Below, one piece after another: positions 17,227 through 61,954 of a stretch of DNA of 64,000 nt; the stretch's first letter is position 1; each line of letters starts with the position of its first letter. The position numbers and the translations under genes are program-made. Under the pieces are notes generated by a model, which had not been told where the DNA came from, ran no database searches, and saw nothing but the letters and a program-made list of their open reading frames with translations. This DNA comes from an uncultured delta proteobacterium (GTDB lineage Bacteria; Desulfobacterota; WTBG01; CAIYCZ01; CAIRTM01). The DNA lies in contig CAIWCT010000110.1 in the NCBI GenBank assembly GCA_903911225.1, forward strand, positions 1,016 through 65,015, given 5' to 3'.

Positions 17227-17282
17227 GGCTATTCTGTCAATTGCAGCTCTAAAGAACTGCATTCGCGTCAGTGAAATCTATA

Positions 17283-18191: not shown

Positions 18192-18252
18192 TTATCATGT
18201 CTTGAGCCGTTTCTTATGCACCGGATAGTGCTATCAGACCTCTTATAAAACA

Positions 18253-20478
18253 CTACATTTGATCGAACTTTGTATCATCAGGACGAATCGGGAATTCTGT
18301 ATCTTGTCCCTCCGTCTTAAATCCACCCCAGGGTGTACTTTGCTTTGTATGTGACGCTACCATTGCCTCACCCATTCCAAGCATTCTTTGACCACTGCTA
18401 TCCTGCGGAGTTTCAAGTCTGCTATTAATACTGTTATCTTCAATTGTAAATGTTGCTACCAGTTGCTGTAGCACCAATGACTGGCTTGAAAGCTCCTCAG
18501 CGGCCGCCGCACTTTCTTCGGCATGGGCAGTATTCTGCTGCGTTACCTGATCAACCTGACCAAGGCCCTGCGTGATCTGGCTTATGCCTTGAGCCTGCTC
18601 ATTGGAAGCAGCAGCAATCTCGGCAACAAGGTCGGTCATCTTTCCTGCTGCTGTAACTATCTCGTGCAACGCCGTTGCTGTTTTGTCAGCCATCTGAGTC
18701 CCGTCAACAGCCTTCTTAACAGAACCTTCAATCAAATCTGCAGTTTCCCGGGCTGCTTTGGCGCTACGGGCGGCAAGATTTCTCACCTCCTCGGCCACTA
18801 CAGCAAAGCCTTTTCCGTATTTGCCGGCACGTGCAGCCTCAACCGCAGCATTCAACGCCAACAAGTTGGTTTGAAAGGCGATTTCATCAATAACTTTAAT
18901 AATTCTAGAAATGTTGCGGCTTGAATCATTGATTTCATGCATGGCGTCAACCATTCGATTCATCCGTTCATTGCCTCGTTCAGCAAGCATCTTTGTCTCA
19001 CCTGCAAGCATATTTGCCTGCCTTGCATTTTCTGCATTATGTTTCGTCTGCGATGCTATTTCATTCATGGAACTTACTATTTGCTCAAGAGAGCTTGCCT
19101 GTTCGGTTGCGCCCTGGCTCATGGCCTGGCTGGTTGAGCTCATTTGATGTGCCCCGGCAGCAACATTGTTGGCCAGCACATTAATATCTGCCATAGTGGA
19201 TAAAAGCGTTTCTACCATGGTTTTAAGTGAATAACCAAAAGCGTCGCTGTCGGAAAGCGGCACAACATTCACGGTTAAATCTCCGATAGCAATTTTTCTG
19301 GCAACTTCAACAAGACTCTGCATATTTTTAACCATTTTTTTCATGGCCTCGGCAAGTACGCCGATTTCATCATGCTGGTCAATGTTGATGGTTTGCTGCA
19401 GATCGCCTTCAGACACGGCATTTGCTAGTGCAACACTTGCACGTATCGGCTCAGTTATCATGCGTGTTAAAAAAAGCCCTATACCAATCGCAAAAAGTGT
19501 TCCAAAGATCATCCAAAAAATTTCTGTCTTAACTGTCGAAGATACTTCAAGCTTCACCCTGCTGCTTAGATCTCGTGCGGCAGTATCATTGATTTTAATA
19601 ACTCTGTCTATTAATGCAGTAACCACTACCTGCTTTTCGTGGCACTTTTCCAATACCTGTATGTTCATTTTATTATACAAATCAACAGCCAGGTTAGCTT
19701 CTGCCAGTATTTTTTCAAAAATTCTGAAGGTAATATTCATATTTTCAGTCATATCGTTATAGACTTTCAGGGCCGTATCCTTGTCTGCTTTGGTCATCAG
19801 TTCTTTCACATCATGCGCACCTTGATAAAATGCAAAGTGAAATTGCAAAACTTGTGAGATCAAGTCCTCAAGTTTGCTGTTTTTAGTCTTGAAGGTTGCA
19901 GACCATATTCCAAAATTGGATGTCGCAGGGTCGTCACCGCCTTCGAATGTGGCCCCATTGTAGATCAAGCCCGAAACAGCCACTGCCAACCGGTAATTTT
20001 CGGTGCGAAAAGACAGTATCTTTGCCATAAGATCGACCGGATTGCGGATATCGGTAGCGACAAGTTGTTTGGCATAATCAATAAATATGGTATTCTCCTG
20101 ATTCCATGCATCTACTGCATTCATCAGTTGCTTCAAAAGCATCGCCTCTTCATCTGTTTTGGGCAGGGATTCGTAGACTGTCCAGGCAGCCTTATAGCGT
20201 TCCTGCGCGTGTATAAAGTTATCAAACTGTTGGTCGTGTTCTTTATCAGCTAAAAGGGGATTTAGAAGGGTATACTGTGTTGCTCTGATGTTTTCAAATT
20301 CTTGTTTTATAATCCGCAGGTTGTCGATACTCGGCAGTCGAACATCGGCTACTTCTTCTGTGCTTCTGCCCAGATTAAGGGCGCCAATCAAGCCCATCAT
20401 GCCGACAATAAGTGTTATGAAAGCAACTAGGATAAATCCCCCGGTAAGTTTTATGCCAAGTTTTATGTTCTTAAGCAT
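18253..20478 (-). CDS. Methyl-accepting chemotaxis protein with a large helical periplasmic sensor domain
   Basis: Two TM segments flank a periplasmic region of about 280 aa, followed by HAMP and the MCP signalling domain ([32 protein letters not shown]). The start was set at the Met that follows an AAGGAG RBS. Confidence 0.9.
18430..19200. repeat. Paralogous MCP signalling-domain repeat, copy 1 of 3 (copies 2 and 3 at about 20730-21500 and 23380-24150)
   Basis: Segments such as gccgccgcactttcttcggcatgggcagtattctgctgcgttacctga are shared almost verbatim between copies. Over about 0.6-0.7 kb the three copies are roughly 85-90 percent identical by eye. Confidence 0.7.
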
Positions 20479-20531
20479 TATTACTCCTTTATCCAATTAC
20501 CAAAATTCAATAATCTGGAATAGTAAAACGT

Positions 20532-22478
20532 CTATTCCGCATTGTTCCATTCGCCAGACTCTTTATCATTTAAAAATATAACCGGCTCAGATTCACAGCT
20601 ATTTTCACTCTGGGCGAGTGTGCGCCTTCCTCCCCACGAATTTTCTGCCGTATGTACGGCTTGTCTGCCGGCAGAAGAGATATGGATTTGAGTAGGCCTA
20701 AACAGAATGCTCTGCTTACGGGGTGTTTCAAGGCGGTTCTTTATGTCTTCCGAAACCGTGAACGTGCTGACCAGTTCCAGCAGCATCTGAGCCTGGCCTG
20801 TCAGCTCTTCGGCAGCAGATGCACTCTCTTCGGCATGGGCTGTGTTCTGCTGAGTCACCTGATCCACCTGCGAAAGGCCCTTGGTTATCTGACTTACGCC
20901 CTGAGCCTGCTCGCTGGATGCGGCTGCTATCTCGGCAACAAGGTCGGTTACCTTGCCTGCCGCAGCAACTATTTCCTGCAGGGCATCCGCGGTCCTGCTT
21001 GCCATTGAAGTGCCTTCCTCAATTTTTCTTACTGCTCCTTCAATCATCTGTTCAGTCTCTTTAGCCGCTTTTGCACTGCGGGCCGCAAGATTACGAACCT
21101 CTTCTGCAACCACGGCAAACCCCTTACCATATTTGCCAGCACGGGCAGCCTCAACCGCTGCGTTTAGTGCAAGGAGGTTTGTCTGGAAGGCGATCTCATC
21201 GATGATTTTAATAATTTTGGATATGTTACTGCTTGCAACACTTATATCATTCATAGCAACGACCATATCCTTCGTCTGCAGGTCTCCCTTTTCCGCAGAA
21301 ACCCGTGACTCGCCGGCAATCTTGCTAGCTAGGGTAGCATTCTCGGAATTTTGTCTGGTCTGCGAGGCTATCTCATTCATAGAGCTTGATATTTCTTCAA
21401 GCGAGCTTGCCTGTTCGGTTGCGCCCTGGCTCATAGCCTGACTGGAAGCGCTTAATTGTTCAGATCCGGAGAGAACGTTACTGGCTGAAAGATGTATTTC
21501 TGAAATAATTTGAGAAAGTTTTTCAGCCATTCGCTTTAACGAATGCCCCAGAGTATCCTTCTCGGATAAAACCGAAAATTTTACCGTCAGATCACCGCCT
21601 GAAATTCTCTCTGCAGCTTGTGCGAGCACTCGCATGTTTTCAACCATTATATTCATGGATTCTGCAAGAATTCCAATCTCATCACGCTGCTGAAAATGAA
21701 GGTTGCCGGATAGATCTCCCTGGGAAATTTGTTGAACAAAAAGCATTGCCTTTTTGATTGGTGTGGTTACAGCCCGGTTTATAAAAAAATAGAGAATTGC
21801 AGCCACAAGCATGAGCAGAATTATTATATTAATAACAATACCAAGGGCAAACATGCGCAGTTCAGCAATTGTTTTCTGCATGGGAACGTAGACATTGAGT
21901 GTGCCAAGAATTACGTTTTGCTTCAAATCGCTGTCCAGTCCTTTGCGCAGCCCCTGATGACATTCAGCGCAGCCCGCATGCGCTTGGCTGACCAGCGGTA
22001 CGGCAACCCGCATATAACCATCACGCAGAACCTCAACACGGTCCCTCCCCTTTTTTATTTCCTCGGCCGCTTCTCGTTCAAAGGCTGTTTGAATGCCGGT
22101 CTTTTCCTTTGCGCCAAATGGTTCAATGCCAAAAATATTAGTGTCACCAATGAGTCTGACGCGAGTAGCTCCCTCACCTAAATCATGAGACAGGGCATCA
22201 TTCATAGCTGTCTTTGTGCGGCTCCAATCCTCAAGAGCCAGCAGTGTATCAACCTTACCGGATTCACGTGCCTTTTGGAAATCCTGATGAAATTTAGTGG
22301 TCGTCACCATAAGCATTTTTGTTGTGCGGTCAATTTGATTCTGCGCCTCAGTCGATGCATAATTAAAAACAAGCTTCTGGGCGCTTCTAAACATCATGAC
22401 AGAAAAACCCACCCCGCTCATGATAACTACCGTCAGCAGAATCATGACAACTTTAGTTTTTAATGAAAAGTTTTTCAT
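20532..22478 (-). CDS. Methyl-accepting chemotaxis protein with a periplasmic c-type haem-binding motif (DcrA-like)
   Basis: The periplasmic region contains a single CxxCH ([11 protein letters not shown]) just before TM2, followed by HAMP and a signalling domain nearly identical to the other two MCPs. Confidence 0.85.
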
Positions 22479-22605
22479 ATACCCTCCAGAAAACATTGCT
22501 CAAAATCTGATGGCTTTAACTATATACGGCATCAATAAATTTGTTTAGGTGAATTTCAAAACTGCATAAAATAAGTATTAATGCAACTTCCTACGCCCTA
22601 GTTGT

Positions 22606-23130
22606 CTAACTGAAATCCGCAAGTGATTTAATTGAATCCATGTGCTCCCTGCGCACCAGATTATCAACATCAAGCAGTATCTTCACATCTTCCCCAATCT
22701 TGCCAAGCCCCTTGATATAGCGCTGCAGATTGCCTTGCGCTACCTCCGGCGGTAACTCAATTTGATTTGCCGGAATGTCGACAACCTCTCTGACCGTGTC
22801 CACTACCAGACCTACCGCCGAACCGTTTACGCTCACAACCACAATGCAGGTTCTGTCGTCATAGCCTCGTTCCGGCATCCTGAATCGCAATCGTACATCC
22901 ATCACCGGGATTACTTTACCGCGCAGGTTGATAACACCTTTGACGTATGCGGGCATATCCGGTACATCGGTTATTTTCTGAATGCCGATAATTTCTGTTA
23001 CAAAGCATATTTCAATTCCATAGTCCTCTTTTCCAACGGTAAACGTCAGATATTTGTCCTTTTGGGTATCTTCATCGTCATCATCGTAGAAATCATCATC
23101 AATTCTCTCATTGTCTCTTTGATATTTCAT
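22606..23130 (-). CDS. cheW: Chemotaxis coupling protein
   Basis: CheW fold motifs FTVGKEDYGIEI...VINLRGKVIPVMDVRLRF...IVVV...GLVVD. The start was chosen at the Met preceded by AAGGAG. Confidence 0.85.
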   Translation of the reverse strand: MKYQRDNERIDDDFYDDDDEDTQKDKYLTFTVGKEDYGIEICFVTEIIGIQKITDVPDMPAYVKGVINLRGKVIPVMDVRLRFRMPERGYDDRTCIVVVSVNGSAVGLVVDTVREVVDIPANQIELPPEVAQGNLQRYIKGLGKIGEDVKILLDVDNLVRREHMDSIKSLADFS

Positions 23131-23189
23131 AATAGGGGCTCCTTTATTCATGATGTACGTAAATCGTCGAAACAAATCGTCATCAGGGG

Positions 23190-25049
23190 CTAGTATTTCC
23201 CGAACTCCCTGTCGTCCAGATAAATCACCGGATCGGGGCTTTGGTTTCCAGCCGTTGCTCCGCCCCAATGCGCTGCAGTACTTGTTCGAGCAGGGGCTTG
23301 TACCAGCTCCTTCCCGGGTTTCAGCATCAGGTTGCTGCCTGCTGACTGATGGGGGACATCGACTTTACTGCATGCTATTTTTTTTTCCAGCTTAAATGTG
23401 TTCACTAATTGCTGCAATACAATGGACTGGCTCGACAGCTCCTCAGCGGCCGCTGCACTTTCCTCGGCATGGGCAGTATTCTGCTGCGTTACCTGAGCCA
23501 CTTGTCCAAGTCCCTGCGTAATCTGACTCACGCCTTGAGCCTGCTCATTGGAAGCAGCCGCAATCTCGGCAACAAGGTCAGTCATCTTACCCGCAGAGGC
23601 AACTATCTCGCTCAATGCCGCTGCCGTTTTATCAGCAATCTGTGTGCCGTCACCTACCCTTTTCACGGAGCCCTCGATCAGATCTGCTGTCTCCCGGGCG
23701 GCTTTGGCGCTACGTGCGGCAAGATTTCTCACCTCTTCGGCCACTACAGCAAAACCCTTACCATACTTGCCGGCCCGTGCAGCCTCAACCGCAGCGTTTA
23801 GTGCCAGCAAATTGGTTTGAAAGGCTATTTCGTCAATAACTTTAATTATTCTAGAAATGCTGCGGCTTGACTCGTTTATCTCCCGCATGCCCGTTACCAT
23901 CTGGATCATTTGCGTATTACCCTTTTCAGCAAATGTTTTTGTTTCACCGGCAAGAATATTTGCCTGCGTTGCATTCTCTGCAGTCAACCTGGTCTGCGAG
24001 GCAATCTCGTTCATGGAGCTTGAAATCTCCTCAAGAGAGCTTGCCTGCTCGGTTGCTCCCTGGCTCATGGCCTGGCTTGTCGAACTCATCTGTCCAGCCC
24101 CAGACGCTACATAGTTTGCCGATATATTGATTTCAGTCATTGTTGCGGAAATTTTTTCAATCATATGCTGCAGTGCCTGCCCAAGTGAATCCCTCTCAGA
24201 GAGAACCTGCACTTTTATACTCAGATCGCCTTCGGCAATGCGTTGCGCAACATGAACGGCGCTTTTCATATTTGACGTCATTGTTCTCATAAAGTCGGCA
24301 AGCATGCCGGCCTCATCTTTTTGTCGTATATCAATATCGACATTTAGATCACCGACAGCCATGGATTTAATCATTTCAACCACCTTCATAATAGGACGGG
24401 TTATGCTTAGAGTGATGACAGTCCCAAGTACAATAGCAAGCACTAACCCTGCAAACACTTCCATAAGCATTATCCATGAAATACTCTGAGCAGTTGATCT
24501 GATTCCCTCAATCCCCTTTTCGAGCCGTAGGGCGCCCTCTTCGGATAAATGTTTCACCATTGCTTCAATTTTTTGGGTCTCATTTTTGTATGCCTCAATT
24601 GCGTTGTTTGCATCTTCAGCTGAGGCAAGAGTGCCGGTCTGAATCTGGCTGTAAACCATATTAAAGCCTTCTGCGTATATGGTAAAATTATCTTTTATTG
24701 CTTTAATGCTATCCTTATCATTTTGAGTTAATCCTGCTTTTTCAAGATCAGTCAGTCTGGTTAAGAAAAGCTCGCGCAAATCATTCCATTTTCTGAAATA
24801 CTCTGCACACTTTTCAGCAGAAGAAATGTTTATAAAAATTTCTTTTTCGATCCGTCGAAGTCCGGCAACATCAGCCAGCGCACCGGCAGCCTGCCGTTCA
24901 ATTTCGCCGTTTGTCTGTTGGAAATCAATTACTCTATACACAATTGATCCAACTCCCCATGAGCCTGCTCCAAAAACCAGCAGAAGCACAAAAACAAGTA
25001 AGCCAAAGCTTATTGCCAGGCGTAAGCCGATTTTCATATTTTTAATCAT
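23190..25049 (-). CDS. Methyl-accepting chemotaxis protein (small four-helix-bundle-type periplasmic domain)
   Basis: TM, a periplasmic helical domain of about 170 aa, TM, HAMP and the conserved MCP signalling domain. Confidence 0.9.
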
Positions 25050-25131
25050 TGTCTTATTCCCCTGAAAAAATAGGTTAGAATACATACCAGTATAACGGGC
25101 ATGTCAATGCCGTCGATGAAACCTGGTGCAA

Positions 25132-27369
25132 TCAACCTTCATGAATCTCGGCCTTTGCCTTTTTGATAAGGCTGCCCACGTCCAGTATCAGGCACACCTC
25201 ACCATCTCCCATGATGCAGCAACCCGAAAGGCCTTCCACCGACCCCATATAGTCGGGTATCCCTTTTATAACAGTCTGTATCTGACCGATTATTTCATCA
25301 GCAAACAGACAAAGTTGTTCGCCCTGATTTTCAATAATGACTAAAATCCCATCGTGGAGGTTCTCAGTATCAGGCTTTATGTTGTGCAGCCGGTACAAAC
25401 GGGATACCTGCAGCAGAGCATCACGAATTTTTACCACCTCGGTGCCATTGGGCAAAACCGTGATATGATGCTCCTTGGGTCTGAACGATTCCATAATAGC
25501 AAGCAGGGGGATGATATATTTTGACTGCCCTACCCTGACCAGCATCCCCTCGATGATAGCAAGGGTGAGGGGGATGCGAAGTACAAATGATGTGCCTTTG
25601 TCCGGCGCGCTTTTAATATCTACACGCCCCTTGATCTTCTCAAGGTTGCGCCTTACAACGTCCAGGCCCACTCCGCGGCCTGACACATCCGTGACCAGAT
25701 CAGCCGTGGAGAACCCAGGCTCAAATATCAAGTCGTATATGTCCTCGTCTTTTAAGGTATCGGGATTGCCACGCAGAAGCCCTTTTTCAAGGGACTTTTT
25801 GATAATCCTCTCCCTGTTCAAGCCTGCGCCGTCATCAGATATTTTTATGACAACATCGCCCCCGTCATACCGGGCCTCCATAACAATGACACCAGTTTCA
25901 TCCTTGCCGAGTTCCCGGCGTCGTTCGGGTGTTTCCATACCGTGGTCAATGGCATTTCTTATTATATGCACCAGCGGATCAGAAATATGTTCAATTACGG
26001 TTTTGTCAACCTCGGTCTCCTCGCCTTTGAGTTCAAGCCGTACCTTTTTTGAAAATTTTATAGCAAGGTCATGTACGAGACGTATCATTTTACGAAACGT
26101 GGTGGTAAGGGGAATCATGCGGATGGCAAGCGCCACATCCTGTAGATCGGTGCTGATGCGTTCGAGGTTATGGCATGACTTGTCGAAATTATCCAGATCA
26201 TAGCCCTTGTTCCGTAGGTCGGGGTTATGGATGACCATCATCTGTGCGATGACCATTTCTCCAACCAACTCCATCAAGAGATCTAGCTTGTCAAGATCGA
26301 CACGAATGTCCCTGCGAAAAATTTTTTGTATTCCCATTTTATCCTGTTCGGCAAATGCATACTCAGTGGCATCTGCGTGCAAGGACTGCTCATCAAGAAG
26401 TATCTCATCAAAGGTTTTGCCCTGGAGTTTCAAAGCCGTTTCCACCTCGCTTGCCGATGCTATGCCCCGGGCTATCAGTATCTCGCCCAGCTTCAGCTTT
26501 TTTGACTCCATATCCAGCTCGGGTGTCAGCCCGTTCAGCAAATCGACCATGAGATCACAACCCTTTATTATGCCGCTTCCGTCATGGGACAGATCCGCAA
26601 CGGCTCCACGAATGGAATCCATGGTTCGGATGATGATAGAAATATTTTGATTGGTTGGGGCTACAGCACCTGACTTCATGCATGCCAGAACATTTTCAAT
26701 GCTGTGGCTCAGGCGCTCAAGATCGCCAAAGCCCATAAACCCGCAGTTGCCCTTAAAGCTGTGAATATTACGAAATGCCGTATCCAAGCTCTCCTGCCTG
26801 TTACCGGACCGGTCAATTTCAAGCAGTGACTGCTCAACGGTTTCCAGCATTTCATCTGACTCTTGTATGTAGCTCTGACGCATTTCAGGAGTAATAGTCA
26901 TAACAGGGGGCTGCTGAGCATCAGGGGCATGGGCTGGTGCAGAGGATTCATCAAGGGTTGCAGCTATGATCTCCTGGGCAAAAGAATTGACCCGCTCTTC
27001 AAACCCATGGTCATGCCCCTGCTTTTCAATTGCCAGCAGCAGGGAACGCATAAAATCGCATGCACGGCAGAGCACGTCAGTTCGCGCGGTTGTAAGGATA
27101 ATCCTGCCGTCGCGGATACTGTTGAGCATTTCCTCAACTTCATGAGTCAGCCTGACCACATTGTGAAGTTTTAGAAATCCTGCGGCACCCTTAAGCGAAT
27201 GAAACAGACGAAAAACGGCGTTAAGCTTATCGACATCGACGCTGCCGCCCTCCTCGCAAAATTTGTGCAGCTCGATAAGGTCGGGTTCAAGCTCATCAAG
27301 CAGTTCGTGCCCGTCGGCTACAAATCCCTGCATCATTTCGCGGTCTTCTTCAAGTTGGGTCATGAGCAC
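25132..27369 (-). CDS. cheA: Chemotaxis histidine kinase CheA with two HPt domains
   Basis: There are two HPt domains (HSLKGAAGFL and HSFKGNCGFMGF), then dimerisation, HATPase (DDGAGLN...GRGVGLDVV) and the CheW-like P5 domain. Residues 293-316 form a single MshEN-like motif, KLGEILIARGIASASEVETALKLQ. Confidence 0.9.
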   Translation of the reverse strand: MLMTQLEEDREMMQGFVADGHELLDELEPDLIELHKFCEEGGSVDVDKLNAVFRLFHSLKGAAGFLKLHNVVRLTHEVEEMLNSIRDGRIILTTARTDVLCRACDFMRSLLLAIEKQGHDHGFEERVNSFAQEIIAATLDESSAPAHAPDAQQPPVMTITPEMRQSYIQESDEMLETVEQSLLEIDRSGNRQESLDTAFRNIHSFKGNCGFMGFGDLERLSHSIENVLACMKSGAVAPTNQNISIIIRTMDSIRGAVADLSHDGSGIIKGCDLMVDLLNGLTPELDMESKKLKLGEILIARGIASASEVETALKLQGKTFDEILLDEQSLHADATEYAFAEQDKMGIQKIFRRDIRVDLDKLDLLMELVGEMVIAQMMVIHNPDLRNKGYDLDNFDKSCHNLERISTDLQDVALAIRMIPLTTTFRKMIRLVHDLAIKFSKKVRLELKGEETEVDKTVIEHISDPLVHIIRNAIDHGMETPERRRELGKDETGVIVMEARYDGGDVVIKISDDGAGLNRERIIKKSLEKGLLRGNPDTLKDEDIYDLIFEPGFSTADLVTDVSGRGVGLDVVRRNLEKIKGRVDIKSAPDKGTSFVLRIPLTLAIIEGMLVRVGQSKYIIPLLAIMESFRPKEHHITVLPNGTEVVKIRDALLQVSRLYRLHNIKPDTENLHDGILVIIENQGEQLCLFADEIIGQIQTVIKGIPDYMGSVEGLSGCCIMGDGEVCLILDVGSLIKKAKAEIHEG

Positions 27370-31281: not shown

Positions 31282-31434
31282 TTGACGAAAAAAATACACT
31301 GTGATAAATTTTTATATATATAAAAGTTTCCTAGTCTGCCTTATGCAGACCGATAAGGTTGAGCGCGGCTCAGCCCGCCATGTTGCGAAGGAAGCCTGAA
31401 GGTGATTTGCGCCTTCAGGCTTTTTTTATTTTTT
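31282..31434 (+). promoter_or_regulatory. Sigma70-type promoter plus a leader RNA of about 118 nt ending in a strong intrinsic terminator, directly upstream of fdhA
   Basis: The -35 is TTGACG (31282-31287), followed by a 17-nt spacer and -10 TAAATT (31305-31310). The leader contains the hairpins gtctgccttatgcagac and tgagcgcggctca. It ends in an 11-bp stem aagcctgaagg/ccttcaggctt (31392-31422) followed by TTTTTTTATTTTTT. The fdhA RBS and ATG lie 38 nt after the U-tract. Confidence 0.5.
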
Positions 31435-31471
31435 ATCCAGCAATTTTTTATAACACAAGGAGGACTCAAGG

Positions 31472-34400
31472 ATGAACATCACGCGAAGGGGATTTCTTAA
31501 AATCTCCGGGGGAGCGGTGGCCGCCGGCAGCCTCGGGCTGAACCTCTCAGAGGTCAAAGCAAGTGCCGCAACAACCAAGATAACATCAGCCAAGGAAACG
31601 ACAACCGTATGCCCGTACTGCTCAGTCGGGTGCAGCATTATCGTGCACACTCAGAACGGCAAAGTGGTTAATACCGAAGGCGATCCTGATTCTCCAATAA
31701 ACCAGGGTAGCCTGTGCAGCAAGGGCATGTCGGTATACCAACTTACCCATGTTAACCCGGACCGCCTGACCAAGCCCCTCTACCGCGCTCCCAAAAGTGA
31801 CAAGTGGGAAGAAAAATCATGGGAGTGGACGCTCGAAAAAATCGCAAATAATATAAAAAAGAGCCGGGATGAAAGCTTCAAGCAAACAAATACCAAAGGC
31901 GAAATTGTTAACCGTACGGAAGCCATTGCTTCTGTTGGCAGCGCCGCCATGGATAATGAAGAGTGTTTTATATATCAAAAATTTCTCAGGAGCCTGGGAC
32001 TCGTCTACATCGAGCACCAGGCACGGATATGACACTCCGCAACTGTAGCGGCTCTGGCAGAGTCGTTTGGACGCGGTGCAATGACCAATCACTGGATCGA
32101 TTTCCGCAACAGTGACTGTATTCTTGTTATGGGCAGCAACCCTGCCTGCAACCATCCTGTTTCTTTCAAGTGGATTCAAAAAGCAATTGATAAAGGCGGT
32201 AAGCTCGTGTGCGTCGACCCACGGTTCACGCAGACAGCGGCCAAGTCAAGCCTCTATGCCCCGTTGCGTTCTGGCTCTGACATTGCCTTTCTTGGGGGCA
32301 TGATAAAATACATTCTCGAAAACAACCTTTTTTTTGAAGACTATGTCAGGCAGTACACAAATGCCACCTACCTTGTAAACCCTGCTTTCAAGCTGCCCGG
32401 CGACAATGACGGCGTCTTCTCCGGCCTTACCGGTACAAAAACTAAAGAAGGGTATGTAAGCGGCAAGTACGACAGGTCGACCTGGTCTTTCCAGATGAAC
32501 GAGGACGGCACCGCAAAAAAAGATCCAACTATGCAAGATCCCAACTGTGCCTTTCAGCTCTTGAAAAAGCATTTCAGCCGCTACACAGTTGAAAAGGTCG
32601 TTGAAATCACTGGAACACCCAAAGACAAGCTTCTAGCGGTTTATCAGGCATATGCCGTAACAGGCAAGCCTGACAAGGCAGGCACGATTCTCTATGCCAT
32701 GGGTTGGACACAGCATACCGTAGGAGTTCAGAATATTCGTGCTATGTCCATTATCCAGCTGTTGCTGGGCAATATGGGTGTTGCCGGAGGCGGCGTGAAT
32801 GCGCTGCGCGGTGAGGCAAACGTACAGGGTTCAACCGATCACGGCCTGCTGTTTCACATTCTGCCGGGCTATCTTAAAGCCCCGGCAGCATCCATGCCTA
32901 CCCTTGCAGACTACAATGAAAAGAATACGCCAAAAACAAAAGAACCGAAAAGCGCCAACTGGTGGGGCAATACGCCCAAGTACTCGGCAAGTCTGCTGCG
33001 CTCGTTTTACGGCGCGGAAGTACCGCTTGATGCTGCCTATGGCTATCTCCCGAAAATTGATGATGGCGCTAATTACTCCTGGCTGACCATTTTTGACAAG
33101 ATGTACAAAGGTCAGTTCAGTGGCTTTTTTGCCTGGGGTCAGAACCCGGCATGCTCGGGTGCTAATGCCAACAAAGTGCGGCAGGCCCTTGCCAAGCTCA
33201 AGTGGATGGTCAATGTAAATCTCTTCCCAAATGAAACCGGTGATTTCTGGAATGGCCCTGGCATGAACCCGGCAAAGATCGATACAGAGGTCTTCATGCT
33301 TCCCTGCGCGGCATCTATGGAAAAGGAAGGCAGCATTTCTAACAGTGGCCGTTGGATGCAGTGGCGTTACAAGGCGACCAATGCGCCCGGAGAGGCCATG
33401 CCCGACGGTGAAATAATTTCTGAGCTGTTTCGCAAGGTGCGCGAACTCTACGAAAAGGACGGCGGACCTGTCTCCGATCCCATTTTAAAGCTCAGCTGGG
33501 ATTACGGCAAATCATTTGATGCGCATACTGTTGCCAAGGAAATTAACGGCTATTTCCTTGAGGACAAAGAAATCGATGGCAAACTCTACAAGAAGGGATC
33601 CCTTGTGCCCGCGTTTAAATTTCTGCAGGCCGACGGCTCTACCTCATCGGGTTGTTGGGTATACTGTGGCTCCTATACCGCCGACGGAAATAAAGCCGCA
33701 AAACGCGGGAAGGATGACCCGACAGGTATCGGCCAGTACTCGAATTGGGCATGGGCCTGGCCGGTCAATCGCAGAATCATCTATAACCGTGCTTCGGTTG
33801 ATATCAGCGGTAAACCCTATGCCCCTGACAAGCCGGTAATTTCATGGGACGGCACGGCATGGAAGGGCGATGTGCCTGATGGGCCGTGGCCTCCGCTTGC
33901 GTCAGAAACTGATGGCAAACTGCCTTTTATCATGAAGCCCGACGGCGTTGCCAGCATCTTCGGCCCCGGCCTTGCAGACGGCCCCTTCCCTGAGCACTAT
34001 GAACCTCTCGAGTGTCCAATAGAAAAGAACCCAATGTCCCCGCAGTTCGTCAACCCGACGGTCAAACGCTGGGAAAATGATGGCGTACCTGAACTGGACA
34101 AACGTGCCTCCTGCGATCCACGCTTTCCCATTGTCTGCACGACGTACCGCGTCAGCGAGCACTGGCAGACCGGTGTGATGACGCGCTGGACGCCGTGGCT
34201 GCTTGAGTTGCAACCAGAAATGTTTGTGGAGATGAGTCGAGAGTTAGCAGAGCTCAAGGGCTTTAAAAACGGCGAACGCGTTATGGTGAAATCAGCCCGT
34301 GGCGAAGTCAATGCCGTTGCTATCGTGACGCCCCGCTTTAAGCCTTTTACGATTGCAGGACAGATCGTGCATGAGGTTGGCATACCGTGGCACTATGGCT

Positions 34401-34534
34401 GGCGTTACCCAAACCCTGATAAGAAAGAACTCCGCAGCGCCAATCTGCTGACCCCGAGCATCGGTGACCCTAACACCATGATACCCGAATCAAAAGCCTT
34501 CATGGTGGACGTTATCAGGAAGGAGGGCAAATAA
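31472..34534 (+). CDS. fdhA: Formate dehydrogenase alpha subunit, Tat-exported and selenocysteine-containing (in-frame TGA at 32030-32032)
   Basis: The Tat signal is MNITRRGFLKISGGAVAAG. The FeS-binding motif is CPYCSVGCS. ORF 31472-32032 and ORF 32081-34534 are in the same frame (both start at positions of form 3k+2). The separating TGA sits in the canonical motif ...QARI-U-HSATVAALAESFGRGAM. The remainder is a molybdopterin oxidoreductase. Confidence 0.9.
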
Positions 34535-35325
34535 TGAATGAAAAAATAATGCTGGTTGACCTGTCGAAATGCACTGCCTGCCGCTCCTGTCAGGTGGCGT
34601 GTAAAAACTGGAACGGCCTGCCTGCGGTGCCGACTATTAACCGCGGCACCTACCAGAATCCACCTGATCTTAACGCGCAAACCTATACCCTGATACGATT
34701 TCAGGAAATTGAGGCCAAAGACGGCGCCATCAAGTGGTTGTTCCGCAATGACAAATGCTTTCACTGCACAGATGCAGGCTGCATGAAAGCGTGCCCTGTG
34801 CCCGGCTGTATCACCAGAACAGAATCGGGCGCAGTAGTTCTTGACAGCACGAAATGCATCGGCTGCAAGTATTGCTACCATGCCTGCCCGTTTTCGGTAC
34901 CGCAGTTTGATGCTGCAACGGAGAAAATGTACAAGTGCCACTGGTGCCATGATCGCCAGGCAGAAGGCAGAATACCGGCCTGTGCGAAAGCCTGCCCGAC
35001 TGGAACAATCCAATTTGGCGACAAAGATGCCATGATAACGCTTGCCGGCAAACGAGCTAAAGAGCTTGGCGGCGATGCCAGCGTCTATGGCGAAAAGCAC
35101 CTTGATGGCACCCATGTGGTATACGTGCTAACTGAAAAGCCGGAAGTATATGAAAAACTGCCGGTTAATCCGAAAATATCCCCGTTAATTTTTCTGTGGA
35201 AGGATGTGCTCAAACCATTTTCAATGCTGAGTTTCCTTGGCGGTTTAGGCGCATGCGCTCTCTACTATTTGATCAAAGGTCCCAAGCGGCCAAAGTTTGA
35301 AGAAGGAGGTGAAAAGCATGAGTAG
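34534..35325 (+). CDS. fdhB: Formate dehydrogenase iron-sulfur subunit (FdnH/FdhB-like, with C-terminal membrane anchor)
   Basis: Four ferredoxin-type cysteine clusters (CTACRSCQVAC, CFHCTDAGCMKACP, CIGCKYCYHACP, CHWCHD...CAKACP) and a C-terminal hydrophobic helix. A TAATG junction couples it to fdhA. Confidence 0.85.
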   Translation: MNEKIMLVDLSKCTACRSCQVACKNWNGLPAVPTINRGTYQNPPDLNAQTYTLIRFQEIEAKDGAIKWLFRNDKCFHCTDAGCMKACPVPGCITRTESGAVVLDSTKCIGCKYCYHACPFSVPQFDAATEKMYKCHWCHDRQAEGRIPACAKACPTGTIQFGDKDAMITLAGKRAKELGGDASVYGEKHLDGTHVVYVLTEKPEVYEKLPVNPKISPLIFLWKDVLKPFSMLSFLGGLGACALYYLIKGPKRPKFEEGGEKHE

Positions 35326-35962
35326 CACGGTAAAAAATTCAAACTATGAGCTTATAGATGTAACGACACCGTTTGAGCGGCTGGTGCACCTTGCTTTTGC
35401 CGGGAGTTGCATCATGCTGTTCATTTCGGGCTTTGCTTTAATGTTTCATACTTTAAGCTTTATCAGCACTGTATTTGGAGGGCTTTACGTCACCAAGTAT
35501 GTTCATAACTTTTCGGGCCTTTTGTTTGCGGTAAGCGGACTTTTTGCCGTGGTTATCTGGTTTAAAGAAGGTGCAATTTTTGACGCTGATGATATCAAGT
35601 GGTTCATGAAGGGCGGTGGCTATCTCTGGACAAAAGAAGGCATCCCTCCGCAGGGCAGATTCAATGCGGGTCAGAAGATGTATTTTGTGTTGAAAGCCTC
35701 TACCTGGGCCCTCATGTCCGTCACGGGCATCATCATGTGGTTTCCCTATTTTTTCGGTAAAGAAATCACCATCTTCTGCTATCCTCTGCACGCCCTTGGT
35801 GTTGCAAGCCTGGCTGGTGCAGTTGTTGTTCACGGGTTTCTCGGCTCCCTTGGCAACCCGGGCACTATTCAGGCAATGATAACAGGGAAATGCACCAGAG
35901 CCTGGGCAAAGTTGCAGCATGCCAAGTGGCTTAAGGAATATGACGAAAAACACAGTAAGTAA
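35318..35962 (+). CDS. fdhC: Formate dehydrogenase cytochrome b (gamma) subunit
   Basis: Four predicted TM helices with conserved His residues (HLAFAG, HTLSF, HALGV, VVHGFLG). The gene overlaps the fdhB stop by 8 nt and is preceded by a GAAGGAGG RBS. Confidence 0.75.
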   Translation: MSSTVKNSNYELIDVTTPFERLVHLAFAGSCIMLFISGFALMFHTLSFISTVFGGLYVTKYVHNFSGLLFAVSGLFAVVIWFKEGAIFDADDIKWFMKGGGYLWTKEGIPPQGRFNAGQKMYFVLKASTWALMSVTGIIMWFPYFFGKEITIFCYPLHALGVASLAGAVVVHGFLGSLGNPGTIQAMITGKCTRAWAKLQHAKWLKEYDEKHSK

Positions 35963-35984: not shown

Positions 35985-36016
35985 AGGACTGCCGAAATTC
36001 GGCAGTCCTTTTTTTT
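35985..36016 (+). terminator. Intrinsic terminator after fdhABC
   Basis: Stem aggactgccg/cggcagtcct with loop aaatt, followed by eight T; an A-run sits on the other side. Confidence 0.75.
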
Positions 36017-36488
36017 CTGACACATTGAACACATTCTTGTTTTGAACCATCAGAACTATTTGTTGCGGGGAAATTCACCTTTCTCAAAATTAAAATTTAC
36101 CATTAAATTTTAATTGACTTTTTGATGCCCATACATTAAAAATTAGTACACTAAATATTCTCGAGCTGCTGCTCCTGTAACCTTATGTCATGGAGCTTCA
36201 GCCGATAGGGTGGAAGCCGAAAGGCTACCGCCTCCTTGGTTTGGAAAGAGGATAAAGATTCACGTATCGAGCAGCGTTTTAGACTGCCCTGCACGCATGG
36301 AAAATCCGAATCTGATATCCCGTACCTTCAATCCTGAAGGAGTAGACAGCTTATACTCAATCCAGGCCAAATCTAAGCGCAAGACAGGCATACCCATGCA
36401 GCTTTCGTTGCTGCATGAAGGCTGCTGTTACACATAGTATCAGGGCTGTACATACACTGGTCAACAGATGAACCAGAAAGGAGAATGC

Positions 36489-37673
36489 ATGGGCAGACAA
36501 AAGGATAAAAGCTACCAGAGCACGGTCAGCAGGCAATACCGCCAGCTGATGGAACAGTGCAAAATCAATCTCGACAAAATGGAGCAGGAACTTCCCCCAC
36601 CGCGTGATGATTTGAAGGATACCCTTAAAGAACGGGGTGTAAGCCGTCGTGATTTCCTTAAGTGGGCTTCACTGACGACATCAGCGCTCATGCTTCCGCC
36701 AATGTTCAAGCCCTTAGTGGCTCGGGCTGCTGAAAACTTTAGCCGCCTGCCAGTAGTGTGGCTGCACTTTGCCGAATGTACGGGCTGCAGCGAGGCGCTG
36801 CTGCGCTCCACATACCCGAATGTTGATGACATACTGCTTGATACAATATCTCTGGAATACCACGAAACCATAATGGCTGCAGCAGGCTATCAGGCAGAGG
36901 CATGCCTTGAAAAGGCACTTCATGATTTTCCGGGCAAATTCATCTGCGTTGTCGAAGGCGCCATACCAATGGGTCTTGATGGCCATTACCTTACCCTTGG
37001 CCCTAAAGGGAAAACCGGCCTTGAAGTAGCAAAAGAAGTCACATCCAAGGCCGCGGTAACTATCTGCATCGGCAGCTGCTCCTGCTTCGGCAATGTACCG
37101 GCAGCCAAGCCCAACCCGACCGACTGCCTCGGCGTAGGGGATGCTCTTGGCATTAAAACGATTAATATTGCAGGTTGTCCTCCAAACCCTGTTAATTTTG
37201 TCGGAACGCTGCTCCACTACCTTATGTTCGGTGCCCTGCCCCCCTGCGATTCTTTGGGTAGACCAGTGTGGGCTTATGGTAAACGCATTCATGATTACTG
37301 CGAGCGCAGGCCTCACTACGATGCAGGCGAGTATGTTGAAGAATGGGGCGATGACGGCGCAAAGAAGGGCTGGTGTCTGTACAAAATGGGCTGCAAAGGC
37401 CCCTACACATTCGCCAACTGTGCAAAAGTACGCTTTAACGCAGGCGTATCCTGGCCGGTAATGGCAGGCCACGGCTGCATCGGCTGCACCGAACCGGCCT
37501 TCTGGGACAGCATGGCACCACTAGAAAAGCCCATTGCCGAGAAAAACGTCATTGGCGGTGAAGTTACCGTGGATAAGGCCGGGGCAGCACTTCTCGGTGT
37601 GACGCTAGCCGGTATGGCAGCTCACGGCGTCATTTCGGCTATCAAAGGCCACAAACCAGAGAATCATGACTGA
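36489..37673 (+). CDS. [NiFe] hydrogenase small subunit, Tat-exported
   Basis: Twin-arginine GVSRRDFLKW. The small-subunit cysteine ligand motifs are HFAECTGCSE, GSCSCFG, CPPNP and GCIGCTEP. The start was chosen at ATG 36489 after AAGGAG; the later Met at 36579 is an alternative. Confidence 0.9.
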   Translation: MGRQKDKSYQSTVSRQYRQLMEQCKINLDKMEQELPPPRDDLKDTLKERGVSRRDFLKWASLTTSALMLPPMFKPLVARAAENFSRLPVVWLHFAECTGCSEALLRSTYPNVDDILLDTISLEYHETIMAAAGYQAEACLEKALHDFPGKFICVVEGAIPMGLDGHYLTLGPKGKTGLEVAKEVTSKAAVTICIGSCSCFGNVPAAKPNPTDCLGVGDALGIKTINIAGCPPNPVNFVGTLLHYLMFGALPPCDSLGRPVWAYGKRIHDYCERRPHYDAGEYVEEWGDDGAKKGWCLYKMGCKGPYTFANCAKVRFNAGVSWPVMAGHGCIGCTEPAFWDSMAPLEKPIAEKNVIGGEVTVDKAGAALLGVTLAGMAAHGVISAIKGHKPENHD

Positions 37674-37716
37674 GCCTATCCGCTCTAGTTCAGCATAAAA
37701 AAGGAGGCACAATATT

Positions 37717-39390
37717 ATGGCACAGAGAATCATCGTCGATCCGATAACCAGAATCGAAGGCCATCTTCGCATCGAGGTCGAAGTCGACAATAATAATGTT
37801 ATTACCGACGCATGGAGTTCTATAACTCTGTGGCGCGGCATCGAAACCATACTGAAGGGCCGCGACCCGCGCGATGCCGGCCTTATGGTTCAGCGCTTTT
37901 GCGGCGTATGCACGTATTCGCACTACGAGGCAAGCATCCTTGCCTGCGAAGACGCCTTCGGCGTCCGGCCTCCGGCAAATGCCCGGCTCGTACGCAATCT
38001 CATTAATGCATCGCAGTATCTTTACGATCATGTGATGCATTTTTATCACCTGCATGGCCTTGACTGGGTTGATATCGTTAGCGCCCTTTCAGCAGACCCG
38101 GCTAAAGCCGTGGCGCTTGCACGCCAGTACAGCGACAACCCCTACAACTGTTCTGAAAGCGGCTATAAAGCTGTTCAGACGCGTCTTAAAAAGTTTGTCG
38201 AGTCCGGTCGTTTAGGCCCTTTTGCAAACGCGTACTGGGGCAATCCCTCGTTTAAAATGTCGCCTGAAGCCAATCTCATCGTCGTCTCCCATTACCTTGA
38301 CGCCCTTTCGGTATCAAAGATAGGCGCCCAGATGATGGCAATTTTCGGAGGCAAAAACCCCCATCCGCAAAGCCTTGTCGTTGGCGGCGTGACCTGTGTC
38401 ATGGATACACTCGACGCAAGCCGCATCGGTGAATACAAGTTCCGTTTTAATGAAGTACGCGACTTTGTTGAACGCGCGTACCTGCCCGACGTGCTGCTTG
38501 CAGCCTCTTTTTACAAAGATGAAGGCATCAAGGGCATCGGCTGCGGAGTTAAAAATTATATGGCCTATGGCGGTTTTCCCCTTGATGATGGCTGGAATAC
38601 AACACTGCTGCCGCGCGGCATAGTTAAAAATGGGGATATCTCCAAAGTCTTCCCCCTTGATGAAAACAAAATTACCGAGGAAGTGACCCATTCATGGTAT
38701 AAAGGCACAGATGCCCTGCATCCTTATGATGGCAAAACAGAGCCTGAATATACGGGCTATGACGCCAAGGGCAATGTCAAAGGCGATGAAAAATATACCT
38801 GGAGCAAAGCTCCCCGCTATGATGGAGAACCCTATGAGGTCGGCCCCCTTGCCCGCTTCATCATCGGTTATGCTCAGGGTCATAAGGAAATAAAAGCGTT
38901 GGTTGACTCAACCCTTAAGGCAACAGGACTTCCTGTGACCGCCCTCTTTTCCACCCTTGGCAGAACCGCTGCCCGAGCCCTTGAGACGAAGCTTATTGCC
39001 GACAATACCGAGCGTTGGATCGGTGAGCTTATCGAAAATATCAAGGGAGGCGATACCCGCACCTGGACACGCTGCGACGTGCCAGATCAGGGACAGGGAC
39101 GAGGCATGACCGAAGTTCCCCGCGGCGCCCTCGGTCACTGGATCAAAATCAAGAACAAGGTCATCGAAAATTATCAGGCCGTTGTGCCATCAACCTGGAA
39201 TAGTTCGCCGCGCGATAAGGCCGGCAAACGCGGGCCCTATGAACAAGCGCTCATCGGCACAAAGCTCGCTAATGTCGAGCAACCCCTTGAGATTATTCGC
39301 ACGATTCATTCGTTTGACCCGTGTATGGCCTGCGCAGTGCACATCATCGACCCGAAAACCGACAAGGTCAGAAAATTCAAGGTTCTGTAA
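37717..39390 (+). CDS. [NiFe] hydrogenase large subunit
   Basis: The N-terminal motif is RIEGHLRIE...RFCGVCTYSH. The C-terminal is DPCMACAVH plus a cleavable extension IIDPKTDKVRKFKVL. Cys, not Sec, occupies the Ni-ligand positions. Confidence 0.9.
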   Translation: MAQRIIVDPITRIEGHLRIEVEVDNNNVITDAWSSITLWRGIETILKGRDPRDAGLMVQRFCGVCTYSHYEASILACEDAFGVRPPANARLVRNLINASQYLYDHVMHFYHLHGLDWVDIVSALSADPAKAVALARQYSDNPYNCSESGYKAVQTRLKKFVESGRLGPFANAYWGNPSFKMSPEANLIVVSHYLDALSVSKIGAQMMAIFGGKNPHPQSLVVGGVTCVMDTLDASRIGEYKFRFNEVRDFVERAYLPDVLLAASFYKDEGIKGIGCGVKNYMAYGGFPLDDGWNTTLLPRGIVKNGDISKVFPLDENKITEEVTHSWYKGTDALHPYDGKTEPEYTGYDAKGNVKGDEKYTWSKAPRYDGEPYEVGPLARFIIGYAQGHKEIKALVDSTLKATGLPVTALFSTLGRTAARALETKLIADNTERWIGELIENIKGGDTRTWTRCDVPDQGQGRGMTEVPRGALGHWIKIKNKVIENYQAVVPSTWNSSPRDKAGKRGPYEQALIGTKLANVEQPLEIIRTIHSFDPCMACAVHIIDPKTDKVRKFKVL

Positions 39391-39414
39391 ACCTTCAACG
39401 GAAAGGAGAATGAT

Positions 39415-40092
39415 GTGGAAAAGACTGATATAAGATTTCCAAAGAAGGAATGGTCGGTAGCAGTTCGCATCAATCACTGGTGCATGGTCTCCTTCATCAT
39501 GATGCTGGTTATAACCGGCATTTATATAGCAAAACCATTCACGTATCTGAGCGGCGAAACATATTATAAGTTTCTGATGGGCAACACCCGATTTGTGCAT
39601 ATATTGTTTGGGGTGGGGCTGGTCTTAATTTTTATCTGGCGCGTGTACCTTATGTTTTTCTCACGCTTCCATGCCGACTTTAAGGATTTTTTCGCCTTTA
39701 CAGATATCAAGAACACCATCGCGCAAATCAAGTTCTATCTGTTGGTTTCCAACAAGCCCGCAGAGCACAAATACCTGTATGGTCCGCTGCAGTCGCTTGC
39801 CTATGGCGGACTCATGATCATGCTGTTTGCCATGTGCCTCACGGGTGTCATTCTTATGGGCCCTGCACATAGCGCAGGGCTCACAGGTTTTGTTTATAAA
39901 CTGGTGAAGCCGCTTGAAAACATCATGGGCGGCTTGGCCGTAGTGCGGGTGATACATCATATTCTCACTTGGGGTTTTATACTTTTTGGGTTTGTGCACC
40001 TGTACATGGCCTTCTGGTATGACTGTGTATTTCAGGAAGGTACGGTGTCATCCATGATCGCCGGGCTCCTGTTTAAAAAGAAAAAACATTAA
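39415..40092 (+). CDS. Ni/Fe-hydrogenase b-type cytochrome subunit (HyaC/HupC-like)
   Basis: GTG start after AGGAG. Four TM helices with His pairs (INHWCM, HILFG, HHILTWGF...FVHLY). Confidence 0.8.
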   Translation: MEKTDIRFPKKEWSVAVRINHWCMVSFIMMLVITGIYIAKPFTYLSGETYYKFLMGNTRFVHILFGVGLVLIFIWRVYLMFFSRFHADFKDFFAFTDIKNTIAQIKFYLLVSNKPAEHKYLYGPLQSLAYGGLMIMLFAMCLTGVILMGPAHSAGLTGFVYKLVKPLENIMGGLAVVRVIHHILTWGFILFGFVHLYMAFWYDCVFQEGTVSSMIAGLLFKKKKH

Positions 40093-40127
40093 ATCAGAAA
40101 TTAAATTTTTCTTAACATTGCTGCACC

Positions 40128-40150
40128 GGGGGATGAAAATCCCCCTTTTT
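40128..40150 (+). terminator. Short GC hairpin plus T5, a partial terminator between the hydrogenase structural genes and the maturation genes
   Basis: ggggg-atgaaaat-ccccc followed by ttttt. Confidence 0.4.
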
Positions 40151-40164
40151 CATGACTGGAGATC

Positions 40165-40674
40165 ATGGCCGACCAGCGACACTATCTGACCATCCTCGGC
40201 CTTGGCAATATATTGCTGCAGGATGAAGGCTTCGGTGTTTATTTTATAGGCTGGTTCAGCGAGCGCTACAGGTTGCCAGACAGTGTCAGGATCATTGATG
40301 GCGGCACACTTGGCTTTGGTCTGTTTGATACCATTACAAGCTGTGAAAATCTTATAGTTATTGATGCCATAAAAACTGATGATGAGCCCGGGTCGATTTA
40401 CCGCTTTACTCAAAACGAAATGGAGCTTTCACACCCACCGGCAACATCAGCCCATGAAGTAGAGTTTGCAGATATTCTCTGCAAAGCCGATCTTATTGAT
40501 CAAGCGCCTAATGCGGTTTTTATCTGTATTGTACCGGCGCAGTACGATGTCCATAACATGCATATGGGGATGACCCCCCTTATGTATGAGCGTTTTGCCG
40601 ATATGGAAAATTTTTTACTTAAAGAGCTTGCAGATCTCGATATCTACCCCGTTAGGAAGCAGAGCCATGCATGA
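40165..40674 (+). CDS. Hydrogenase maturation endopeptidase (HyaD/HybD/HynC family)
   Basis: ILGLGNILLQDEGFGVYF...IIDGGT...IDAI, the aspartic protease family that trims the large-subunit C-terminus. Confidence 0.85.
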   Translation: MADQRHYLTILGLGNILLQDEGFGVYFIGWFSERYRLPDSVRIIDGGTLGFGLFDTITSCENLIVIDAIKTDDEPGSIYRFTQNEMELSHPPATSAHEVEFADILCKADLIDQAPNAVFICIVPAQYDVHNMHMGMTPLMYERFADMENFLLKELADLDIYPVRKQSHA

Positions 40675-53966: not shown

Positions 53967-53979
53967 GACAGCATGCCTG

Positions 53980-54213: not shown

Positions 54214-54265
54214 CTAATCTGATTTGAGCACAGCATGCCATGCCCATTCATCCAACCAAAAAAAT

Positions 54266-60210: not shown

Positions 60211-60254
60211 TAATCCCGGGGTATATCCCCATAAACAATTTTCAAGGAGGAAAC

Positions 60255-61925: not shown

Positions 61926-61954
61926 AGAGATTCGCATTGTAATCTAAGTTAACA

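Follow-up and report, generated by a model that had tools for sequence, protein, structure and literature searches.

An fdhA gene with an in-frame TGA and an invariant SECIS-type hairpin in an uncultured deltaproteobacterium

The fdhA locus and its internal TGA codon

We analysed a 64,000-nt stretch of DNA (the window) from an uncultured delta proteobacterium (GenBank assembly GCA_903911225.1, contig CAIWCT010000110.1, positions 1,016 to 65,015 of the forward strand), focusing on fdhA (31472-34534, forward strand), a gene for the catalytic (alpha) subunit of a periplasmic formate dehydrogenase (FDH) of the selenocysteine (Sec)-containing type. Translation of this region gave a single frame of 1020 codons that ends at a TAA (34532-34534) and whose sole internal stop is a TGA at 32030-32032, codon 187. 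A frame of 1020 codons uninterrupted but for this TGA is far beyond chance. The open reading frames (ORFs) at 31472-32032 (186 aa) and 32081-34534 (817 aa), with starts 609 nt apart, lie in this common frame, exactly where the original prediction had placed them when it described fdhA as one selenoprotein gene split by the ORF list. The motif named there, ARI-TGA-HSATV, was likewise found as described: in translation, the residues IEHQARI are followed by the TGA and then by HSATVAALAESFGRGAMTNHW.

The ATG at 31472 is preceded at a distance of 8 nt by a Shine-Dalgarno sequence read from the DNA (AAGGAGG, 31457-31463). The first part of the gene (31472-31567, end point approximate) encodes a twin-arginine (Tat) export signal, MNITRRGFLKISGGAVAAGSLGLNLSEVKASA, with an RRGFLK motif in the N-terminal sequence MNITRRGFLK, and the alignment with the mature chain of the Desulfovibrio gigas enzyme begins at query residue 35. 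The N-terminal region also carries a 4Fe-4S motif of the form CxxCxxxC...C, here CPYCSVGC followed after 27 residues by a further C, and PF04879 (Molybdop_Fe4S4) matches the 186-aa fragment. The read-through product scored 1424.1 bits against TIGR01553 (formate dehydrogenase-N (FDH-N) alpha subunit; cutoff 814.2), covering model positions 2-1007 of 1009. It also aligned over nearly its full length with the PDB chains 1H0H (1390 bits), 6SDR (~1337 bits) and 1KQF (966 bits), in all of which the TGA codon falls on X (selenocysteine), followed by His, within the shared alignment block iehqarixhsatvaalaes.

Two genes follow fdhA on the same strand. The first, fdhB (34534-35325), encodes an iron-sulfur (beta) subunit with a membrane anchor at its C-terminus; the A of its start codon is also the final base of the fdhA stop (TAATG), and its product matched TIGR01582 with E = 7e-76 at 255 bits, below the curated cutoff of 334.7, and contains PF09163 (Form-deh_trans, the FDH-N-type membrane anchor). 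The second, fdhC (35318-35962), encodes a cytochrome b (gamma) membrane subunit that exceeded the TIGR01583 cutoff (128.8 versus 115.85 bits); fdhB and fdhC share 8 nt, the fdhC ATG being at 35318, and the 214-aa gene is also called at loci L082 and L083. A terminator-like hairpin, GGACUGCCG-aaauu-CGGCAGUCC with a U run (35986-36016), which was read from the sequence and was not listed by a consensus terminator scan, lies at the end of the fdhABC operon. Taken together, the family score, the Tat and 4Fe-4S motifs, the Sec/Cys-then-His position and the beta and gamma partners all place the fdhA product among the Sec-form TIGR01553 alpha subunits.

For comparison, we used an orthologue set of 80 loci, one genome per species, with protein identities of 63-86%, which came mostly from metagenome-assembled genomes (MAGs) of Syntrophales, Desulfobacterales and other Thermodesulfobacteriota and included the complete genome of Syntrophus buswellii. 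The homologous codon was TGA in 77 of the 80 orthologues and TGC (Cys) in the remaining three. Such a pairing of TGA and TGC (Sec and Cys) at one codon is a signature used for selenoprotein recognition (PMC13188914). In pairwise comparisons, synonymous differences equalled or exceeded non-synonymous ones on both sides of the TGA down to ~70% identity. Against locus L001, for example, synonymous and non-synonymous differences numbered 55 and 10 in the N-terminal part and 282 and 129 in the C-terminal part, while in the most distant pairs (~64% identity) the two counts were about equal. Within the 16 codons from the TGA to the next ATG, amino-acid changes were absent in seven of eight comparisons, the eighth (L037) having three, and this stretch is therefore translated. 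These data indicate purifying selection, as judged from the substitution patterns, on both flanks of the TGA and in the 16 codons before the next ATG.

The three TGC orthologues (L040:4556, L041:4556 and L043:1776) all belong to Syntrophus/Syntrophaceae and share correlated changes next to the Cys codon, namely Ile to Leu at position -1 and Ala to Ser at position +3 (ARLCHSS). One of them, L040, retains a partial remnant of the Sec insertion sequence (SECIS), GCTCTGGCGGAGTCG. Sec-to-Cys conversions with remnant SECIS elements have been described for FdhA (PMC1794560), and the sequences of the three loci are consistent with conversions of this kind.

The conservation described above bears directly on the possibility that the TGA is a genuine stop, in which case the locus would be a pseudogene, or a split gene encoding a 186-aa Fe-S/Tat fragment and an 817-aa molybdopterin fragment starting at the ATG at 32081. 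Public gene callers do annotate the identical sequence in a metagenome (L081:6939-10001) as proteins of 186 and 817 aa, and an ATG is indeed available 16 codons downstream of the TGA. However, a genuine stop would not be expected to persist in 77 of the 80 orthologues precisely where solved enzymes have Sec, nor would the 16 supposedly intergenic codons be conserved at the protein level. Moreover, the ATG at 32081 follows the sequence GGACGCGGTGCA, which offers no ribosome-binding site, and the large fragment translated from it would be devoid of the Tat signal, the Fe-S domain and the metal ligand.

An error in sequencing or assembly that turned a TGC or TGG into TGA was also considered, as TGC differs from TGA by one base only. 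Locus L081, however, an independently assembled contig from another sample, is split identically at the same place, L166 from the Joint Genome Institute (JGI) metagenome collection has the same TGA, and so do 77 other species. Identical genes are present in the samples ERZ27245625 and JGI 3300025162. The agreement of L081 and L166 therefore excludes a sequencing error, to which we assign a negligible probability.

A third explanation is that the UGA is read through without selenium, by a near-cognate tRNA (Trp or Cys), by Cys-tRNA(Sec), or through reassignment of UGA to a sense codon. The three TGC orthologues show that Cys is functionally tolerated at the position of codon 187, and it is from sequence that we infer selenium in FdhA. 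On the other side, TGA terminates 12 of the 37 other family-supported genes in the window, none of which contains an internal in-frame TGA, which shows that UGA has not been reassigned. Besides fdhA, scanning the window for in-frame TGA codons gave no convincing selenoprotein candidate.

The hairpin downstream of the TGA and Sec decoding

Codons +6 to +11 after the TGA (codons 193-198, 32048-32065, GCG GCT CTG GCA GAG TCG) showed zero synonymous variation among 78 distinct TGA-type sequences. They are the only six of the 698 informative codon columns in the whole gene with essentially zero synonymous entropy; correspondingly, the ratio in the 6-codon window at this position was 0.0, compared with a gene-wide mean of 0.876 +/- 0.123, and the adjoining codons varied near the level expected from codon usage. 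In the three Cys-type genes, this constraint is relaxed: different codons occupy positions 193-198 and the hairpin described below is not formed. These results indicate a constraint on the RNA beyond the needs of the protein.

RNAalifold analysis of the 78 sequences gave a single consensus helix (columns 20-36), which corresponds to 32049-32065 and forms the conserved core of a SECIS hairpin, CGGCUCU-GGC-AGAGUCG, with seven base pairs including one G-U. The apical loop may be drawn as GGC (32056-32058) or as a 5-nt UGGCA loop (32055-32059) on six base pairs. Loop positions G27 and G28 are invariant, the middle nucleotide is C or G, and U26 and A30 are paired in 78 of 78 sequences. The core alone folded at -7.1 kcal/mol (z = -2.56), and with one additional pair on each side (32047-32068) the energy was -9.8 kcal/mol (z = -3.29), with none of 200 shuffles as good. 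In the present sequence only, an extended stem (32037-32076, -18.0 kcal/mol) can be formed, in which a single U at 32046 is bulged. Only the 17-nt core is claimed here because the lower helices are broken in many orthologues, with pairs 8-47, 10-45, 15-40 and 18-38 lost in 18-40 of 71 distinct sequences. A single copy of the 17-nt motif is present in the window, and the hairpin starts 17 nt 3' of the UGA.

We compared this element with the four structural criteria of the bacterial SECIS consensus (bSECISearch; Zhang & Gladyshev, as summarised in PMC13188914). The consensus calls for an upper stem of 4-16 bp closed by a loop of 3-9 nt, and the hairpin offers either a 3-nt loop on 7 bp or a 5-nt loop on 6 bp. 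The required G at the first or second loop position, typically within N1-G-[G|U]-N-N2 with N1 and N2 paired, is present as U-G-G-C-A (32055-32059). The spacing from the UGA to the apical loop, set at 16-37 nt, is 23 nt (32033-32055) to GGC or 22 nt to the 5-nt loop. Finally, the minimum free energy limit of -7.5 kcal/mol is passed by the 32047-32068 (-9.8) and 32037-32076 (-18.0) forms, the bare core reaching -7.1 kcal/mol.

A hairpin had been expected at about 32035-32085, in a segment with two short palindromes. It is present, and its conserved part (32049-32065) lies inside the second of them, ggctctggcagagtc. The first palindrome (ccgc...gcgg, 32037-32051) gave no conserved helix; in the fold, CCGC at 32037-32040 pairs with GCGG at 32073-32076, and this pairing is lost in orthologues. 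The suggestion of an Escherichia coli fdhF-type hairpin with a conserved bulged U and a GU apical loop did not hold, because the loop is (U)GG(C/G)(A) and the U bulge at 32046 appears only in the extended fold of this sequence, with its flanking pairs broken in 22-25 of 71 orthologues. Folding of the single sequence did give a hairpin, but its energy was not significant by itself, as shown below. The claim that the TGA is a recoded stop and the gene no pseudogene, by contrast, is borne out by the distribution of TGA and TGC among the orthologues, by selection on both sides of the codon, and by a SECIS-type hairpin that is invariant only in TGA-type genes.

The synonymous-site freeze at 32048-32065 would remain unexplained if the TGA were a genuine stop, which we consider very improbable. 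Non-specific read-through would likewise have no need of a hairpin with SECIS geometry whose synonymous sites are frozen, and selenium-uptake genes lie nearby, so that selenium-free read-through is given an equally small chance. The selenium-handling genes form a cluster on the reverse strand at 51908-55339, 17-21 kb downstream of fdhA. It comprises YedE, a putative Se transporter (54266-55339; TIGR04112, 477 bits), a short YedF/TusA-like protein (53980-54213), a Se_S_carrier/DUF3343 protein (53412-53966), a 305-aa protein (52498-53415) and a full YedF (51908-52549; TIGR03527, 187 bits). A role in selenium metabolism has been predicted for the YedE, YedF and Se-carrier families from SelD-linked gene neighbourhoods (PMC9312934), and the cluster provides indirect support for a Sec-decoding trait of the host. 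FdhA is, moreover, the most widespread bacterial selenoprotein, one survey having recorded it in 67 of 75 genomes that use Sec, and Deltaproteobacteria are rich in selenoproteins, with four Sec-FdhA genes in Syntrophus aciditrophicus (PMC1794560).

Several results weigh against Sec decoding at this hairpin. Folds of the single sequence were no better than those of shuffled sequences (61 nt, 32030-32090, z = -0.91; 131 nt, 32000-32130, z = -0.07), and it is because the single-sequence fold is not significant that support for the hairpin is drawn from comparison. A covariation test of the fold found none in the invariant core; since the hairpin does not vary, the helix rests on thermodynamics and synonymous-site conservation and not on compensatory changes. 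Rfam SECIS_3 (RF01989, the enterobacterial fdnG/fdoG type) scored 33.3 bits against a gathering score of 63, with most model pairs unformed and many non-canonical; this sub-threshold match is largely due to the shared coding sequence, and membership of the element in SECIS_3 was rejected because the score is below threshold. The Cys-type comparators number three, all of them Syntrophus/Syntrophaceae MAGs. As for the decoding machinery, no selA, selB or selD was found when 46 ORFs within the window or immediately past it were scanned for protein families, none of selA, selB, selC and selD in the 10 kb to its right, and no tRNA-Sec in 83 loci (the 80 orthologue loci and three same-species contig loci); the 64-kb window contains no tRNA gene at all. 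We therefore assume that this organism has the Sec machinery, with selA, selB, selC and selD presumably located elsewhere in the genome; the absence of these genes from the DNA examined would also suit a genuine stop.

All evidence considered, codon 187 of a single fdhA gene is almost certainly decoded as selenocysteine via standard SelB/SECIS-dependent insertion, and the three rival explanations jointly retain only a slight probability. As the ribosome nears the UGA, the mRNA hairpin at 32049-32065, with its apical G-G 23 nt past the codon, would be bound by the C-terminal domain of the elongation factor SelB carrying Sec-tRNA(Sec). The hairpin-bound SelB would tether the ternary complex at the A site and outcompete release factor 2, and the selenocysteine incorporated at codon 187 (32030-32032) would then serve as a ligand of the Mo or W (molybdenum or tungsten) atom.

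The gene is a textbook selenoprotein gene and its split annotation a textbook gene-calling artefact, both of an already known kind, and the Sec codon with its context shows no departure from that kind. The proper record is one coding sequence with a translation exception (Sec) at codon 187 instead of two ORFs or a pseudogene. As the split is found in the public calls for L081, it has therefore already propagated in protein databases. The gene also identifies its host as a selenium user, and the FDH is probably of the tungsten/selenium type that is studied for CO2 reduction. In addition, the synonymous-site analysis offers a clean and transferable way to place a SECIS element where single-sequence folding is uninformative.

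The fdhA leader RNA, a Moco-type riboswitch and neighbouring genes

Upstream of fdhA, a promoter-like site (31282-31310) precedes a structured 5' leader (31327-31394, forward strand) that resembles a reduced molybdenum cofactor (Moco)/tungsten-cofactor riboswitch aptamer with helices P1, a short P2, P4 and P5. An intrinsic-terminator-like hairpin with a U run (31387-31427), located between this aptamer and the fdhA ribosome-binding site, is presumed to be its expression platform, and its stem shows compensatory changes in L001, L002, L120, L124, L156 and L166. The leader was also found at L001:438-520, L002:963-1047, L124:1369-1452(-), L166:1305-1387, L120:1279-1364(-), L156:7509-7595 and L160:2839-2923. 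It is followed by TGA-type fdhA in L124 and L166, by an ORF resembling aldehyde:ferredoxin oxidoreductase (AOR) in L160, and by a gene for a small 4Fe-4S protein in L120 and L156. In an alignment of eight loci (A4), 95.8% of the cells of the four-helix structure were paired and nine pairs had changed on both sides. The covariation score was 0.435, compared with 0.208 +/- 0.028 in shuffles, none of 500 being as high, and with 0.03-0.20 for slid partners. A pattern scan of metagenomes for the leader, which supplied L120, L124, L156, L160 and L166, returned 117 matching stretches, with 80 loci listed; most of the listed loci were rejected as chance matches inside coding regions, and a real leader was present in six, five of them distinct from the loci of the genome collection (L129 and L143 duplicate L002).

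Rfam gave no RF01055 (Moco/tungsten-cofactor (Tuco) riboswitch) match at 31327-31394 even at E <= 10. By the gathering and architecture test of that family, the leader falls outside it, having no P3, no P2 receptor bulge and no P4 GNRA tetraloop. A covariance model built from the eight leaders only (R1), however, matched Moco-type sites directly upstream of fdhA at about 20 other loci, three of which were confirmed by RF01055, as well as canonical RF01055 sites, including 36150-36257 in the window and one in L026, with E values of 1e-8 to 1e-3. Despite the missing Rfam match, these cross-matches indicate homology at the level of sequence and structure models, and we therefore place the leader with the Moco riboswitches as a reduced relative. 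Like RF01055, it has the helix order P1, P2, P4, P5 and the blocks UCCGAG, CCG..AGG and CC.CC...UUG.AAGGA; unlike RF01055, it is devoid of P3, its short P2 has no receptor bulge and its P4 no GNRA tetraloop. Moco RNAs without P3 have been linked to tungsten-cofactor use (Regulski et al. 2008, PMC2408646), and the leader precedes fdhA in a clade for which tungsten enzymes are the nearest homologues of solved structure.

A canonical Moco/tungsten riboswitch (RF01055, 70.5 bits, with the P3 hairpin deleted in the Rfam alignment) is located at 36147-36267 on the forward strand, 3' of the fdhC terminator and about 200 nt 5' of an operon for a Cys-type [NiFe] hydrogenase (36468-40674), which comprises genes for the small subunit, the large subunit, a cytochrome b and a maturation protease as well as hyp genes. 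This hydrogenase is not a molybdenum- or tungsten-cofactor enzyme. In the relatives L011, L026 and L037, RF01055 instead lies directly upstream of fdhA. A literature search for a link between Moco riboswitches and hydrogenases found no relevant precedent, and the word hydrogenase is absent from Regulski 2008 (PMC2408646). The hydrogenase large subunit (37717-39390, forward strand) scored 597.6 bits on the NiFeSe-hydrogenase model, for which the cutoff is 600; it was rejected as a selenoprotein, as its gene contains no in-frame TGA and its C-terminus, DPCMACAVH, is of the cysteine type.

A broader and rather doubtful proposal may be drawn from these sequence data. The leader (31327-31427) might represent a minimal subclass of Moco riboswitches, unseen by Rfam, with the tungsten cofactor as its signal, in which P3 disappeared together with the P2 receptor and the P4 tetraloop; it is present at at least eight loci, upstream of Sec-fdhA, AOR-like and Fe-S genes. 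Acting jointly with the P3-less RF01055 before the hydrogenase operon, it might switch the cell between formate and H2 as electron carriers, depending on the cofactor. Specialists may find that this leader RNA and the riboswitch ahead of the hydrogenase operon are the parts of the locus that merit attention.

Elsewhere in the window, a large chemotaxis cluster on the reverse strand (16180-27369) encodes CheA, CheB, CheR and three methyl-accepting chemotaxis proteins. This cluster, which has no connection with the recoding of fdhA, is situated upstream of both glnS and the fdh operon. Towards the right end, the forward-strand region 60132-63524 encodes a multi-rhodanese protein (60132-61925) and a nucleoside triphosphate (NTP) transferase of the DVU_1551 family (62367-63524). 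A candidate for tRNA 2-selenouridine synthase, a rhodanese ORF immediately past the window, proved on testing not to be one. About 1.9 kb past the right end of the window, ORFs resembling arsenite methyltransferase (ArsM) and AhpD/CMD proteins lie in one frame 120 nt apart (L084:13869-15356). They were rejected as a fused ArsM/AhpD selenoprotein, as the gap contains several TAA, TAG and TGA stops, and they are separate genes.

Comparison with known formate dehydrogenases and SECIS elements

The best matches among solved structures are the W-containing FDH of D. gigas (1H0H) and FdhAB of Desulfovibrio vulgaris Hildenborough (6SDR and related entries). The D. gigas enzyme has essentially the same active-site block, IEHQARI-Sec-HSATVAALAES(F/Y)GRGAMTNHW, as the FdhA described here, with one F/Y difference, whereas that of D. 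vulgaris FdhAB carries three substitutions (HSPTVPALAES). The Desulfovibrio enzymes and the FdhA described here have in common the Tat signal, the N-terminal 4Fe-4S motif and the Sec metal ligand. The D. gigas and D. vulgaris FDHs are soluble alpha-beta heterodimers. In contrast, a cytochrome b gamma gene follows in the present operon, and FdhB carries a membrane anchor of the FDH-N type.

In these respects, the operon resembles E. coli FdnGHI (1KQF), with which it shares the three-gene alpha-beta-gamma layout, the models TIGR01553, TIGR01582 and TIGR01583 matching all subunits (the beta subunit below cutoff). E. coli FdnG has Sec at the homologous position and a SECIS directly 3' of the UGA, as found here, and decoding in E. 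coli requires the stem-loop 3' of the UGA (Berg et al. 1991, as cited in PMC13188914). As an alpha subunit, however, FdnG is more distant (966 bits), and the E. coli-type hairpin (SECIS_3) is formed in another register with a GUC loop. On the basis of these matches, the enzyme is predicted to be an alpha-beta-gamma complex similar to FDH-N, with the Desulfovibrio W/Sec enzymes as the closest matches of its alpha subunit. The nearest homologues and the leader RNA suggest tungsten as its metal, although W and Mo cannot be told apart by sequence.

With regard to the RNA element, the core at 32049-32065 together with its extension agrees with all four constraints of the consensus bacterial SECIS model (PMC13188914). 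That model is generic and permissive, whereas the element described here is an invariant 17-18-nt sequence in 78 orthologues from Syntrophales, Desulfobacterales, a Nitrospirota MAG and others. An invariant 17-nt SECIS core that spans several orders and escapes the Rfam model is mildly notable, and it may represent a distinct class of SelB recognition that Rfam does not model.

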